Program-made: the position numbers and the translations under genes
In this document: piece after piece, positions 1-56,152 of the stretch
How the letters are laid out: each line of letters begins with the position of its first letter
How positions within the stretch are numbered: position 1 is the stretch's first letter
Virus record (IMG/VR): IMGVR_UViG_3300045125_000040
Location: 94,791 to 158,790 of that record
Length of the DNA: 64,000 bases
Origin: a virus
Strand: one strand, 5' to 3'
Notes under the pieces: generated by a model
Seen by the model: only the letters and a program-made list of their open reading frames with translations
Database searches by the model: none
What the model was told of the DNA's origin: nothing

Positions 1-375
1 TTTATTGGTAAGGCAAGATTAACAGAAACACCAATGGGTAAAGTTGCTATTGGTCTTTTGGAATCTGGTGGACAACTTGGCGTATCTACTCGTGGAATGG
101 GTTCTTTAAAAGAATCAAATGGCGTCATGATAGTTCAAAGAGATTTCAGCTTTCAACAGTTGATATTGTATCAGATCCAAGTGGTCCTGATTTGTTTTGT
201 TAATGGTATTATGGAAGGTGTTGAATATTTTTATGATCCAGTAAAGAATACTTGGATGGAAGAAAAATTAGATAATACTAAGAAGAAAATTAAAAAGCTA
301 TCAAGATCACAAATTGAAGAACAAAAGATGGCTATTTTGAGAAATTATATTTCTTCATTGGTAAAGTTCAAATAA
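1..375 (+). CDS. 21: Prohead core protease gp21 (5'-truncated, frameshifted)
   Basis: TPMGK...LGVSTRGMGSL and DIVSDPS...FVNGIMEG motifs of T4 gp21; directly upstream of gp22/gp23. Confidence 0.93.
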   Translation, partial: FIGKARLTETPMGKVAIGLLESGGQLGVSTRGMGSLKESNGVMIVQRDFSFQQLILYQIQVVLICFVNGIMEGVEYFYDPVKNTWMEEKLDNTKKKIKKLSRSQIEEQKMAILRNYISSLVKFK

Positions 376-1628: not shown

Positions 1629-3025
1629 ATGTATCTAGCCGAAGAAATTCAAAATAAGTGGGCACCCGTCCTAGACCATGATGCTCTTGGTACCATTAAG
1701 GACCAGCATCGTCGTTCAGTTACTGCAGTTATGCTTGAGAATACTGAGAAGGCACTCCGTGAGTCAGCTGCTCATGGTTCTTATCAGACTCTAACAGAAA
1801 CTGATTCACTAACTCCTGTCAACATGATGGGTGCTTCAAGTTCAACAGCTGGTGCTGGTGGTATTGATACCTTCGACCCAGTTCTAATTTCACTAGTTCG
1901 TCGTGCAATGCCTAACCTCATTGCTTATGACATCTGCGGCGTACAGCCAATGACAGGTCCAACTGGACTTATCTTTGCTATGCGTTCAAAGTACAACAAT
2001 CAGGGCAATGGTTCTGGCAACACTTCATTCGCTGGTGTTCAGGCCAACGAAACCTTCTATAATGAAGTTGATACTTCATTCTCAACTCGTGTTGATAACA
2101 AGACTGGTTTCGGTAACGCTCATATTGGTACCTATTCGAGTGCAACTAATACCACACCACTAACTGCTGTTTCACAGTATAACACTGGTTCTGGTATGTC
2201 AACTGCACAGGCAGAAGCTCTTGGAACTAGATTCCAACACAGCTTCCCACAGATGGCATTCTCAATCGAGAAGGTTACTGTTACTGCAAATACTCGTGCT
2301 CTAAAGGCAGAGTATACTCATGGAACTAGCACAGGATCTCAAGGCTATTCATGGTCTAGATGCTGAGACAGAGCTAGCCAATATTCTTTCTGCTGAGATT
2401 ATGGCCGAAATCAACCGTGAGGTTGTTCGTACCATCAATATCACTGCAGTTGCTGGCGCACTAGGATAATGTTACTACTGCTGGCGTCTTCGATCTTGAC
2501 ACCGACTCAAACGGTCGTTGGTCAGTTGAGAAGTTTAAGGGCCTAATGTTCCAGCTAGAGCGTGAAGCTAACCAGATCGCCAAGCAGACACGTCGTGGTA
2601 AGGGTAACATCGTTATCTGTTCTTCAGACGTTGCTTCTGCACTACAGATGGCTGGTGTTCTTGATTACGCTCCTGCTCTTAATTCAAACAACCTACAGGT
2701 TGACGATACTGGCAATACCTTCGCTGGTGTTCTAAATGGTCGTCTACGTGTTTACATTGATCCATATGCCATTGGTGGTAACTATATCACTGTTGGTTAT
2801 AAGGGTTCAAGTGCATTCGACGCTGGCCTATTCTACTGCCCATACGTCCCACTACAGATGGTTCGTGCAGTTGATCAGTCAAGCTTCCAGCCAAAGATCG
2901 GCTTCAAGACTCGTTACGGAATGGTTGCAAACCCATTCGCAGAGGGTCTTAATAAGGGTCTTGGTGGTCTTACTATCAATACTAACAAGTATTATCGTCG
3001 TGTGATTGTAAATAATCTCATGTAG
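1629..3025 (+). CDS. 23: Major capsid protein gp23 (rejoined)
   Basis: LVRRAMPNLIAYDICGVQPMTGPTGLIFAMR and FQPKIGFKTRYG signatures; LTE propeptide-type cleavage site. Confidence 0.98.
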
Positions 3026-49488: not shown

Positions 49489-49935
49489 TTATGCCTTTAT
49501 AAATGAACGTAGCATCCATCCATGCTTTTGATGGGCTGTTAGACGGTCTTGAATTATATTTGATACTGCATAATGTTTATGTTTTTCACATAGTTCATAT
49601 GCACTAGTTAAAGAAGCAATCACTCTTTCATTATCAGCAGCTAATTTGCTCATCATAACTAAACCATCTGGAATAACTGTTGCTTCTTCAATAGTTGTTA
49701 GTTGTAAAAATCTTTTCATTGAACCAGGTGTAAAAGCATCAAATGTTCTAATTGATTCGGCTATCAAATCAATTGCTGGATTTAATTCCTCATATAAAGA
49801 CCCAAGAAACTTGTGGTATTCAGAGAAATGAGGACCAGTAACATTCCAATGAAAATTCTGCACCTTAACTGCAAGTACATAAGTATCTGCTAGTGCAACC
49901 TTTAAAGCATCAACTGGTTCAATTTTACCTATCAT
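49489..49935 (-). CDS. dps: Dps/ferritin-like DNA-protection protein
   Basis: LAD, NFHWNVTGPHF..YH, DLIAE, K.GWML.S. Confidence 0.9.
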   Translation of the reverse strand: MIGKIEPVDALKVALADTYVLAVKVQNFHWNVTGPHFSEYHKFLGSLYEELNPAIDLIAESIRTFDAFTPGSMKRFLQLTTIEEATVIPDGLVMMSKLAADNERVIASLTSAYELCEKHKHYAVSNIIQDRLTAHQKHGWMLRSFIKA

Positions 49936-50812: not shown

Positions 50813-52390
50813 TTAGCAATTCCATGCACGTAGTGATTTATTAATTCCTGAATTTGGATCACGAGCAGTTTTAGCAGAAGTTAATTTAGCTTTCATGCCT
50901 TTCATTCTTGAACAGAATGATTTGCGGCGTTTTGCTGCTTTACTACCGGGTTTTAGTTTTGGAAGGCTTTGTTGTTACTGCTGTTTTTAGCTTTGAACCG
51001 GGATGTTCTCTACGATATGACTCAACACCTTTTTGGTTTAATCCGCCAGTTTCACGCTTGCCTTCTTTTCTCTGCCATGCAGGAGACTTTGCCTCTTCAA
51101 TATATTCATGAACAACTCTTTTGATTATTTGACCGGGGGTCTGTTTTGCATAAACGTCTACCAATTCATCGCTCCTATAAATCTTGATGATGGTTTTCTA
51201 AAATCTTTTGAATGCTTCTCTGCATTTTCTGAAATAACTGCTTTTTTCTTGATTTGTCTGACTACACCGGGAGATAAATCGCCTCTGTGATTAGGAACAG
51301 ATATATTTCTATCAGACTTTGGATGTTTGAAAATAGTATGACCGCCCTTTGTTCTATCTTCAGACCAACCATTTGATTTTAAATGTTTATGGAGGTCTCT
51401 TGTTGTTTCTTCTTTAACTGGACCTTTTTCGACTTTTGCCAATTTCTTGTAATAGTCTGGACGTTCAGACAAGTGATCTCGTGCAATTTCTGCAGCGTCT
51501 CTAGTATTACTTGTATGTTCTTTTTCAACTTTAATGCCTTTCTTTAAAGCCATTTTGATGTCAGATAAGGAGTATTATGTTTTTTAGCGATTGCATCTAA
51601 AGAAGGTGTAGGAACATTCAATTGTTCTTTTACTGGTACACAATCAGGAACTTCTTTTGTTCCTTTCTTCTTCATACCAACTTGTTTGTAACCAGACCAG
51701 CATTTTTCATCTAATTCTGATTCTTCTGAGACGGATTTCCATCCGCCGCCTTTTGACTTGTACCATTTAGCAGCCCAACCATTAGCATATGCAGATGGAT
51801 ATACATCAAAACTTACTGCGAGCTAATGACTTTGCCTTTGCCCAAAGGGATGGATTAGTAGGAGCATTCTTTTCTTCAAGATATTCTTCTGAAATTTTGC
51901 CTTTACCAAAATTAGAAACGTTTATTGGCTTTCCGCCTTTTCTGATCTATCTGCCACGGGATCATGTCTCCTTTTAGCAGCAACAGCGGCTGCTCTTTCT
52001 TTTAGATAATTTTGCTCTTTTTTCGTTGGACATACATTTTGGTTTAGGTTCGCCGGGTTCTCTAGCACAAGGACCAGCGACATTTCCTTTAGAATCAATA
52101 CGTTTCCATCCACCTTCGGGATGTTTAGGATTGAACCAATTTCTTAAATCTTCGTCTAATTGTGCCGCAAATCCACCAGAAATAAATGAATTTACTCTAT
52201 CAAAAGCAAATGATTCGGGTGATCCGCCAAATGCTTCTGTCCATGTGACAAATCCTCTGCGGTATACTTCTTCCAGTATATCCACAGAAATGCCTGAATT
52301 TGATGATTTTTTGTAAAGAGATAGCTTTGCTTTGTCAGATAAGTCTACGGCAGATGTATCTAGCCTGTTATAATCATTAAAACTTTTCAT
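50813..52390 (-). CDS. Multi-module late polyprotein containing a HicA-like domain (~525 aa rejoined)
   Basis: Continuous reading across indels; modules separated by LDE, LEE, VSE, VKE, ISE, IEE. Confidence 0.65.
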
Positions 52391-52456: not shown

Positions 52457-52464
52457 TATTTAGT
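52457..52464 (-). promoter_or_regulatory. Late promoter variant ACTAAATA
   Basis: ~65 nt upstream of the polyprotein ATG. Confidence 0.6.
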
Positions 52465-54027: not shown

Positions 54028-54057
54028 AATTCGCTCCTGTTTTTATCTTATTTAGAT

Positions 54058-54088
54058 AAAAAAAGAGGGTAGGCTTTCGCCTACCCCC
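54058..54088 (-). terminator. Rho-independent terminator
   Basis: GGGGTAGGC-GAAA-GCCTACCCT + U7. Confidence 0.88.
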
Positions 54089-54727: not shown

Positions 54728-56152
54728 TCATTTGAAATCCATCAAACTTTTTTCTATCAAATTTAGGTTTTGGTTTGTCTTCGCTCATTTTCTTCCTCCA
54801 TGAACTTGCCCTTATCCAATCACTGGGCGATCATCTACTAATCCTTCCTGCGCTGATTGGTCTACATCATAGAGACGCATTTTACTACGATCAATCCCAA
54901 CGATAAACCTCCGATTAGAACTAGGGTCGGAGTAACGATTTTTAAGCTGTTTAACCATAATTTGGCTGAGCGATTCGAGTTCTTCTGACGAGATGAGGGC
55001 GAACATGAAGCCAGCAGTGGCTGGTAGACCGAAAGATTCTGATGTGTCTTCAAGTCCCACGTCGCTATTCGAATATCCCGAACGAGTTGTCTGTGTTGCT
55101 GACACGATAGGAACGCCGTATCTCGACTGCAAGACCTTCTAAGTTCTTCGGCGATTGCTTTGACGAGCGTGTAGGAATTGACGTTTGCTCCATGTTTAAT
55201 CCTCGATGATAAACAAACAGCTTAGATAGTCAATGTAAATAATGTACTAGGTATAAAGTCTCTTTCTTAATCTTCAAATTCATTCAGAAGATGACGGAAG
55301 TTTGCTGAACCAAAGCCACAGGCAGTGGGATATTCCTTGATGATAAGTTTACCTGTAACCTTAGTCTTCAACTTCTCTAATTTTAGCATCATAAGACTGC
55401 TCTGGGTAGCAATGCTAGTTCATCAACAGCAACATCTAGTAAGCTGGCATCAATCCTTTTCGGCAATACGTTCCTCCGCCATTTCCAATGTGATGTATGG
55501 GTGACGTTATTGCCCCTTGAGAGATTGGCGGCTGCACAGTGACACATGAATAGACTTTTGCCAACTCCGGTTCCGGCGAGGGCAATGTTGAGGGTCTTGT
55601 TGGGAAGACCGCCGTTTGTGATGACATTAAGGTAGTCGAGATCAAATGGCACTCTCTTTTCTTTTCTATGGTAGAACTCATAGCGTTCACTGGCATCGTC
55701 AATAAAGTCATGGCCAATGGGAGTGTCGAAAGAAACTGCCAGCGCATCTGTGAGAATTTGTGGAATAGAACCTTTAGATATCGAACCATTCTTTTCATCC
55801 ATAATTTTAATAGACTCTCATAATGCCAAGATACAATGCTTTATCTTGACAAAACTTTTCAGTCTCGATCTAGCAACCATCCAGCTTAGAATTGGTTGCC
55901 TCAAGAGAAGTGATAATCTCTTTTCCGTTCTTGAATGTTTCTTCATTCAATCCATCTTTATTGGACAGATCAATTGCTAGTGCTTCAATACTAGGAAAAG
56001 AGTTATACTTCTTAACATAATCATCAACTAGATCAAATACAACACGCTCTGAATAATCCCTGAAAATACTCTGTCTTTAGAAAAGGGATAACCTTTCTAG
56101 CATACTCATCATTATGTAATAGATTAGATAGGATTACTCTTTCAATGCTCAT
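54728..56152 (-). CDS. 41: Replicative helicase gp41 (rejoined)
   Basis: LAGTGVGKSLFMCH, IKEYPT, VSATQTTRSG, SESFGLPATA, KQLKNRY. Confidence 0.95.

Follow-up and report, generated by a model that had tools for sequence, protein, structure and literature searches.

A T4-GC119 family gene as a candidate capsid-loaded, prohead-protease-processed polyprotein with an embedded HicA domain

The internal proteins of phage T4 are the textbook case of proteins injected together with phage DNA to act against host defences. T4-like cyanophages and pelagiphages dominate ocean viromes, marine T4-like myoviruses being among the most abundant viruses known, and to our knowledge no counterpart of the T4 internal proteins has been described for them. 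Here we analyze one gene on the minus strand of a 64,000-nt stretch of viral DNA (IMG/VR record IMGVR_UViG_3300045125_000040, positions 94,791 to 158,790; hereafter the window). The gene belongs to the T4-GC119 family. Its product, a chain of small basic modules that include a HicA domain and are set apart by cut sites of the head-protease type, looks like an ocean-phage counterpart of the injected internal proteins of T4. An earlier reading of the bare sequence (the original prediction) had proposed that the locus encodes a polyprotein that is packaged into the capsid, cut by the prohead protease gp21 and injected.

Cleavage by T4 gp21 follows the textbook rule L/I-x-E (Black, Showe and Steven, 1994). 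T4-type prohead proteases cut C-terminally to Glu within short motifs (PMC5694885). The internal proteins of T-even phages form a diverse anti-defence set with only the capsid targeting sequence (CTS) in common (PMC3012670); in T4 this sequence is MKTYQEFIAE (PMC8442874), in which residues 4 and 7 serve targeting, and residues 8 and 10 processing, which an Asp at position 10 blocks (PMC9026906). In Sullivan et al. (2010; PMC3037559) the T4-GC119 family appears as a hypothetical protein belonging to a mobile cassette, its gene sizes ranging from 276 to 2985 nt.

As sequenced, the locus consists of seven open reading frame (ORF) pieces in three frames that tile the minus strand from 52390 to 50813. 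A database search with the piece encoding the DUF5661 and HicA domains found an intact protein of 526 residues (P0003), which is 95% identical across that piece and has the same module order, including the HicA domain with its catalytic His. Alignment of the window with the Logan contig that codes for P0003 (L010; 91.1% nucleotide identity overall, 94.6% in the coding sequence) revealed exactly six frameshifting indels, every one in a homopolymer run (Table 1); as these amount to a net change of -3 nt, the read-through product has 525 residues. Taken at face value, the seven ORF pieces could instead mean that the frameshifts are real, in which case the locus would be either a pseudogene in decay or several distinct small genes. 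This seems scarcely credible, as the breaks lie inside conserved domains, with the PSAYANGW module and DUF6321 each divided between frames. The homopolymeric nature of the indels, the equally broken state of essential genes on the same contig (gp41 helicase, gp23 and gp21; Table 1) and the existence of the intact orthologue led us to ascribe the frameshifts to assembly or sequencing errors and to reject that reading. The single ORF of about 525 codons running through five or six indels was thus borne out, the listed modules and every boundary tripeptide are all present, and we are nearly certain that the locus represents one gene of one virion protein family. Homopolymer indels are found throughout the assembly, the 50-90 kb part of which still holds ORFs of up to 1265 residues, and ORF-based annotation of this record is consequently fragmented.

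Membership of the T4-GC119 family follows from sequence homology to annotated members, including tblastn matches to those of S-T4 and DSL-LC02. Relatives detected by tblastn in 501 phage records are almost all from marine cyanomyoviruses, with some from pelagiphages; those of P-RSM4, S-SM1 and P-HM2 carry the annotation 'T4-LIKE GC: 119', and the usual place of the gene is between gp16 and gp17. Protein searches reached saturation in both length classes used, each giving more than 7,500 clusters, i.e. more than 15,000 clusters at 90% identity. Purified virions of S-SM1 yielded 13 peptide counts for the T4-GC119 product (PMC3037559, Suppl. Table 8), and the S-SCSM1 orthologue (SSCSM1_29) is annotated as 'virion protein' on the basis of mass spectrometry of CsCl-purified particles. 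That the gene is expressed late, as originally proposed, is supported by the P-HM2 orthologue PHM2_112, which falls in the expression cluster 'Late (D)' in light and dark alike (PMC5082946). A CTAAATA heptamer precedes the gene in the window, where this 7-mer is not enriched (11 found vs 17.5 expected); it is persuasive as a late-promoter signal only because at the equivalent position, 66 nt upstream of the ATG, L010 carries the canonical T4 late promoter TATAAATA (L010 1753-1760).

Analysis of the deduced protein divides it into an N-terminal region and seven further modules (Table 1). Pfam matches comprise DUF5824 (weak), DUF5661, HicA_toxin and DUF6321, with a faint additional match to DUF5872, while the 15 PHROG families matched are all of unknown function except for the HicA 'toxin' phrog. 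Module H (DUF6321; match 6.2e-17) is the most conserved module of the family. The predicted cut products are all basic, with isoelectric points (pI) of 9.1-11.1, and the N-terminal 80 residues and the linker peptides that would be excised are acidic; module A (pI 4.7-6.1), which ends at LDE80, is a putative targeting propeptide. In an AlphaFold2 model of P0003 (mean predicted local distance difference test score, pLDDT, 69.7), all seven internal linkers of low pLDDT end at [LIVM]-x-E sites (80, 174, 229, 256, 328, 389 and 434), and the three remaining sites are predicted to lie within helices. Foldseek with this whole 526-residue model gave no structural match for modules other than HicA.

The original prediction held that each module boundary carries an [ILV]-x-E motif of the gp21 type, such as the LTE found in gp23 of this phage at the position where, going by the alignment with T4 gp23, the propeptide would end. 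The number of such tripeptides is by itself uninformative, as 13 in the polyprotein compared with about 8 expected is not beyond chance; their positions are far from random and conserved across the family. Among 77 non-redundant family members, 920 [LIVM]xE motifs were found vs 565 expected, with a z-score of 16.7 that overstates independence, the sequences being related; the corresponding ratio in the other ORFs of this genome is 1.21, and in the same 77 members there is hardly any enrichment of [LIVM]xD and a deficit of [AGST]xE. The motif stands one residue before DLRxWF of module B in 36/44 cases, 24 residues before PSAYA of module C in 39/46, and one residue before CWxGY of module D in 25/38. 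For module H (DUF6321) its distance to the GGLNxKG core is 11-15 residues in 37/41 cases, and none of the control motifs had a preferred offset in these family alignment tests. When module B was examined without conditioning on the motif, P1 was Glu in 43 of 46 sequences and P3 was L, I, V or M in 37 of 46, and before the modules P2 and P4-P10 vary with context. Similarly, comparison of relatives gave 247 large-indel junctions, of which 57% have a site no more than 2 residues from the left edge and 39% from the right edge, compared with 11% for random positions, and [LIVM]xD and [LIVM]xK are not enriched there. Taken together, this pattern argues that the polyprotein is probably processed at [LIVM]xE sites. 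The genome encodes gp21 (Table 1), which is the presumed processing enzyme.

Further support comes from the N-termini of relatives. A 10-residue leader of the form MK[STNK][FL]K[STDQ]F[IVFM][ASKN]E opens 71 of 266 family proteins, with module B or D directly after it (e.g. MKSFKSFIAE followed by D, or MKKLKDFIAE followed by R), and a looser pattern is met by 164 of the 266. Three further genes of this genome have CTS-like starts ending in [LI]xEE (Table 1); none matched a PHROG or Pfam family, and they are candidates for additional head-packaged proteins.

In line with the original prediction, relatives have acquired or lost modules at [LIVM]xE boundaries, as seen in the comparison of the 247 junctions and in the slots occupied by HicA, Hydrolase_2, LysM and Zeta_toxin. 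One relative (P0005) is the same protein minus the CWxGY and HicA modules. Another (P0037) lacks HicA and has a Hydrolase_2 cell-wall hydrolase module before DUF6321, in the slot from IRE350 to IKE523. A Zeta_toxin/AAA_33 module is present in P0084, LysM in P0066 and P0085, and GNAT modules in other members. DUF6321 also exists as a stand-alone gene of 84 residues in podoviruses, and in HTVC035P the stand-alone version starts three residues before PAWQRK, at the predicted N-terminus of the cut product. Such stand-alone modules were found through tblastn matches in podoviruses; a search for shorter homologues yielded only multi-module members of 240-288 residues and no single modules.

In Prochlorococcus phage P-SCSP1i, a T7-like cyanopodovirus (L020 2459-2877), two family modules occur as separate tiny genes, DUF6321 (84 residues) and a GLYANIHAKRKRIKAGSGE-type module (58 residues), between the major capsid and tail-tube genes. 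This location suggests that the two modules are virion-associated in this phage too; the cryo-electron microscopy paper on P-SCSP1u is silent on the small genes behind the major capsid gene. At the other end of the size range, DUF5661 is joined to enzymes in two very large metagenomic proteins. In P0035 (1608 residues) it is accompanied by an HD domain, a CCA-adding/poly(A) polymerase head and a weak match to PrimPol, and in P0034 (1191 residues) by a GNAT acetyltransferase. Both could represent the same principle with larger cargo, or else be fusions of no relevance to it.

Several observations weigh against a packaged and processed cargo. The protein studied here starts with MKSFNDY, without the strict 10-residue leader and lacking a Glu around position 10. 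Its exposed sites begin with LDE80, and the targeting element, if any, would therefore be the 80-residue acidic region. The virion-detected S-SM1 orthologue does not start like a CTS, and not all of its boundaries carry a canonical site; the Syn9 orthologue went undetected in virions (PMC3037559). Podoviruses that have no gp21-type protease contain modules as well. At P3, V and M occur besides the L/I known for T4 gp21, and non-hydrophobic-x-E is itself about 2-fold enriched at large-indel junctions, so that part of the junction signal is due to the linkers being Glu-rich. Peptide-level or size evidence of cleavage was found for no orthologue, and Sullivan et al. (2010) give counts only.

An alternative is that the gene and virion family are as described and the protein stays uncleaved, as one multi-domain virion protein, e.g. 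an internal DNA-binding or accessory structural protein, in which [LIVM]xE would be a feature of linkers or domain caps, or a relic of module shuffling. Virion detection carries no size information, the linkers are generally acidic, the S-SM1 sites are imperfect, and the modules function in phages that have no gp21 as well. We nevertheless consider an uncleaved protein unlikely, because one tripeptide recurs in front of five or more unrelated modules while P2 and the upstream context change, because its sites lie in predicted disordered segments rather than in folds, because the T4-CTS-like leader of the 71 relatives ends in the same motif, and because stand-alone homologues begin at the predicted cut.

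The HicA signature noted originally was confirmed by profile search. Pfam HicA_toxin (PF07927) matches with 6.1e-15 on the window piece and with 3.5e-16 at window 51239-51400, its score of 55-57 bits comparing with a curated cut-off of 27. The segment aligns along the full length of solved HicA proteins (1WHZ, 4C26/6G26), and the His of its KGGH sequence (G-x-H motif) falls on the catalytic His, aligning with KGGH of 1WHZ and with the position of H24A in HicA of B. pseudomallei; this residue is kept in 5/5 HicA-bearing family members examined. The fold proposed for the segment around 51240-51410 also emerged from the AlphaFold2 model, in which the module is predicted to be alpha-beta-beta-beta-alpha and to resemble a double-stranded RNA-binding domain (dsRBD), with helices at 332-340 and 375-383 and strands at 344-347, 352-356 and 363-367. 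The top Foldseek matches of the P0003 model are the HicA structures 4C26, 6G26, 4P78 and 1WHZ, with template modelling scores of 0.46-0.57 by target and weak E-values, the query having been the whole 526-residue model.

A strong HicA_toxin match could be taken to mean that the phage bears a classical toxin-antitoxin or abortive-infection toxin. The HicB profiles PF15919 and PF05534 matched nowhere in the 158.8-kb genome, extending the claim that no HicB is adjacent, and the domain is located inside a late virion-protein gene. HicA is present in a minority of family members, at four different positions and preceded by VKE, VTE, IEE or IDE. The classical HicAB reading was rejected for want of HicB in the genome, and a classical toxin role is in our judgement about the least plausible explanation of all. 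The segment is a true HicA domain that is not part of a HicAB system. No architecture of this kind came up in a term search of a survey of HicA contexts (PMC10865869).

The best reading of these data, and one that we moderately favour, is that of a capsid-loaded cargo polyprotein processed by gp21. A polyprotein system resembling the T4 internal proteins is the simplest account of the family and virion data, the HicA domain, the punctuation, the leaders and the exchangeable modules. The precursor would be organized as beads on a string: seven small basic modules, the HicA RNase domain among them, behind an acidic N-terminal region that serves targeting. After loading into the prohead, it would be cut by the gp21-type protease behind the Glu of the exposed [LIVM]-x-E in every linker, and the basic modules would remain with the DNA and enter the host along with it, where HicA would most likely attack host RNA. 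For the packaged, gp21-cut cargo originally claimed, the virion association of the family (S-SM1 and S-SCSM1), the encoded gp21 and the exchange of modules at boundaries are in favour; head location, cleavage, injection and HicA activity are inferred. The further suggestion that the effectors are kept inactive by fusion is unsupported and also unnecessary, since a late toxin in a lytic infection requires no antitoxin, the producing cell being already doomed.

If processing does occur, the modules could still be head-internal peptides for DNA packing or charge neutralization, with HicA contributing a fold that binds nucleic acid but no RNase activity in the host. In favour of this, the modules are without exception strongly basic, most are DUFs without an enzymatic signature, and the HicA fold is dsRBD-like. 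Retention of the catalytic His in all five HicA-bearing relatives examined speaks against such a role, as do the Zeta_toxin, Hydrolase_2, LysM and GNAT modules elsewhere in the family, which are typical of effector or entry functions, and we regard it as rather improbable. Injection of an active HicA, the more specific part of the injected-cargo proposal, should be viewed as tentative. The same caution applies to the broader and still speculative notion that marine T4-like myoviruses load their heads with a swappable, single-gene string of effectors, in which up to eight modules behind one T4-type leader are separated by the prohead protease at [LIVM]xE and injected with the DNA, with HicA (for RNA attack), zeta-toxin kinase and cell-wall hydrolase/LysM among the exchangeable cargo.

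If true, a hypervariable gene family of more than 15,000 clusters could be read as a repertoire of injected effectors, and widespread marine DUFs (DUF5661, DUF5824, DUF5872 and DUF6321) would be injected, early-acting proteins. The grammar of leader and [LIVM]xE would predict the injected proteome of uncultured phages, and there would be a way to equip cyanophage heads with foreign proteins. Already cultured phages and existing virion mass-spectrometry data make the idea directly testable.

Turning to the surroundings of the gene, the upstream neighbour encodes a virion structural protein (phrog_1645) that is broken by five indels here and intact in L010; the two genes adjoin each other in this genome, in L010 and in S-T4. 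Further upstream, a strong GAAA-tetraloop terminator (10-bp stem and T7; window 54049-54088, minus strand) is immediately followed by CTAAATA, the L010 counterpart of which is TATAAATA at 69-76. This junction of terminator and late promoter opens a unit that comprises the 113-residue CTS gene, the 438-residue virion protein, the polyprotein, the Pro/Ala-rich protein and Dps, and the last two genes appear to be co-transcribed with that of the polyprotein.

Table 1. Coordinates of the polyprotein gene, its modules and frameshifts, and of other genes discussed (window positions unless marked as genome).
Feature	Position	Strand	Remarks
T4-GC119 family gene	50813..52390	-	about 525 codons as sequenced, 526 in intact orthologue
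Module A, residues 1-80	52151..52390	-	helical DUF5824-like domain (weak Pfam match); CTS-like start MKSFNDY
Module B, residues 81-169	51887..52150	-	DLRNWF / GGW / Cys...Cys domain; pI 10.3
Module C, residues 175-223	51724..51871	-	NPSLW...PSAYANGW; faint DUF5872 match; pI 10.1; linker EYLEE before
Module D, residues 230-256	51625..51705	-	CWSGY...VPDC beta-hairpin mini-domain; pI 9.4; flanked by LDE and VKE
Module E, residues 257-328	51410..51624	-	DUF5661 (EHT motif), helical
HicA module	51227..51409	-	HicA_toxin match; flanked by VKE and ISE
Module G, residues 390-434	51094..51226	-	SSRFxG...TPGQ; end VHE / YIEE
Module H, residues 435-526	50816..51093	-	DUF6321; pI 11.1
Frameshift	52003		-2, A run; L010 alignment
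Frameshift	51942		-1, GG; L010 alignment
Frameshift	51811		+1, T run; L010 alignment
Frameshift	51568		-1, T run; L010 alignment
Frameshift	51175		-1, G run; L010 alignment
Frameshift	50962		+1, C run; L010 alignment
CTAAATA	52457..52463	-	66 nt upstream of ATG
Virion structural protein, 438 aa	52467..53782	-	phrog_1645, 4.6e-117; upstream neighbour
Pro/Ala/Gly-rich low-complexity protein, 268 aa	49994-50800	-	no family; 12-nt gap with GAGGA to polyprotein gene
Dps/ferritin-like gene	49489-49935	-	Pfam Ferritin, 3.6e-23
MLSFKEFIKEE gene	54027	-	CTS-like start; heads operon containing polyprotein
MKSFLEYILEE gene	3808	+	CTS-like start; just downstream of gp23
MKSFRNFLTEE gene	genome 25694	+	CTS-like start
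gp21 prohead protease, 3' part	1..147 (genome 94558-94937)	+	Peptidase_S77, 44.2 bits; frameshifted, 2 frame pieces
gp23	1629-3010		3 frame pieces
gp41 helicase	54854-56152		at least 5 frame pieces

The T4-GC119 family and its presence in virions are already published. New, in that our literature search did not find them, are the grammar of the polyprotein, the leaders resembling a CTS, HicA and the other cargo, and the connection with the T4 internal proteins; the search returned no paper that links a CTS or internal proteins to cyanomyoviruses or that describes these DUFs. The gene shares with T4-GC119 of cyanomyoviruses its sequence family, annotation, hypervariable length and, through S-SM1, virion detection, and differs in location, as the locus lies near terS/terL in cultured cyanophages and away from terS, beside replication genes, in this genome; the description by Sullivan et al. 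(2010) was made without modular or protease-site analysis. With HicAB type II systems it has in common the sequence, fold and catalytic His of the HicA domain, which here is without HicB and is not a separate gene but part of a virion polyprotein.

Polyvalent proteins (Iyer et al., 2017; PMC5512222) similarly combine several unrelated effector-type domains in a late or virion gene context, and their presumed fate is delivery alongside the DNA and processing into units. They are usually longer than 1000 residues and carry their own metallopeptidase (MPTase), whereas the modules described here measure 27-92 residues and are set apart by prohead-protease-like punctuation; no embedded peptidase domain was detected in P0003 or the relatives scanned, and cyanophages are not mentioned in that survey. 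The ejection and inner-body proteins of phiKZ, 201phi2-1 and SPN3US resemble our proposal in being cut C-terminally to Glu at a short x-X-E by a gp21-related protease, and they have long propeptides with redundant sites. In those phages, however, the cuts strip propeptides off large single proteins at an A/S-x-E motif, and there is no chain of small modules.

T4's IPI, IPII and IPIII internal proteins offer the closest parallel, even though no IP family was among the Pfam matches at E<=0.01. Shared with them are late genes and, in many relatives, a leader of about 10 residues that has Glu at position 10 and a hydrophobic or aromatic residue at each of positions 4 and 7; shared as well, if our proposal holds, would be cleavage after the Glu of hydrophobic-x-E, small basic products that are retained with the DNA and injected, and a hypervariable repertoire directed against host defences. 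Each T4 internal protein has its own gene and its own CTS and undergoes one cut, whereas here unrelated modules, as many as eight, share a single ORF in which each linker has its site, and in the member studied an acidic N-terminal region of 80 residues stands in place of the 10-residue leader.

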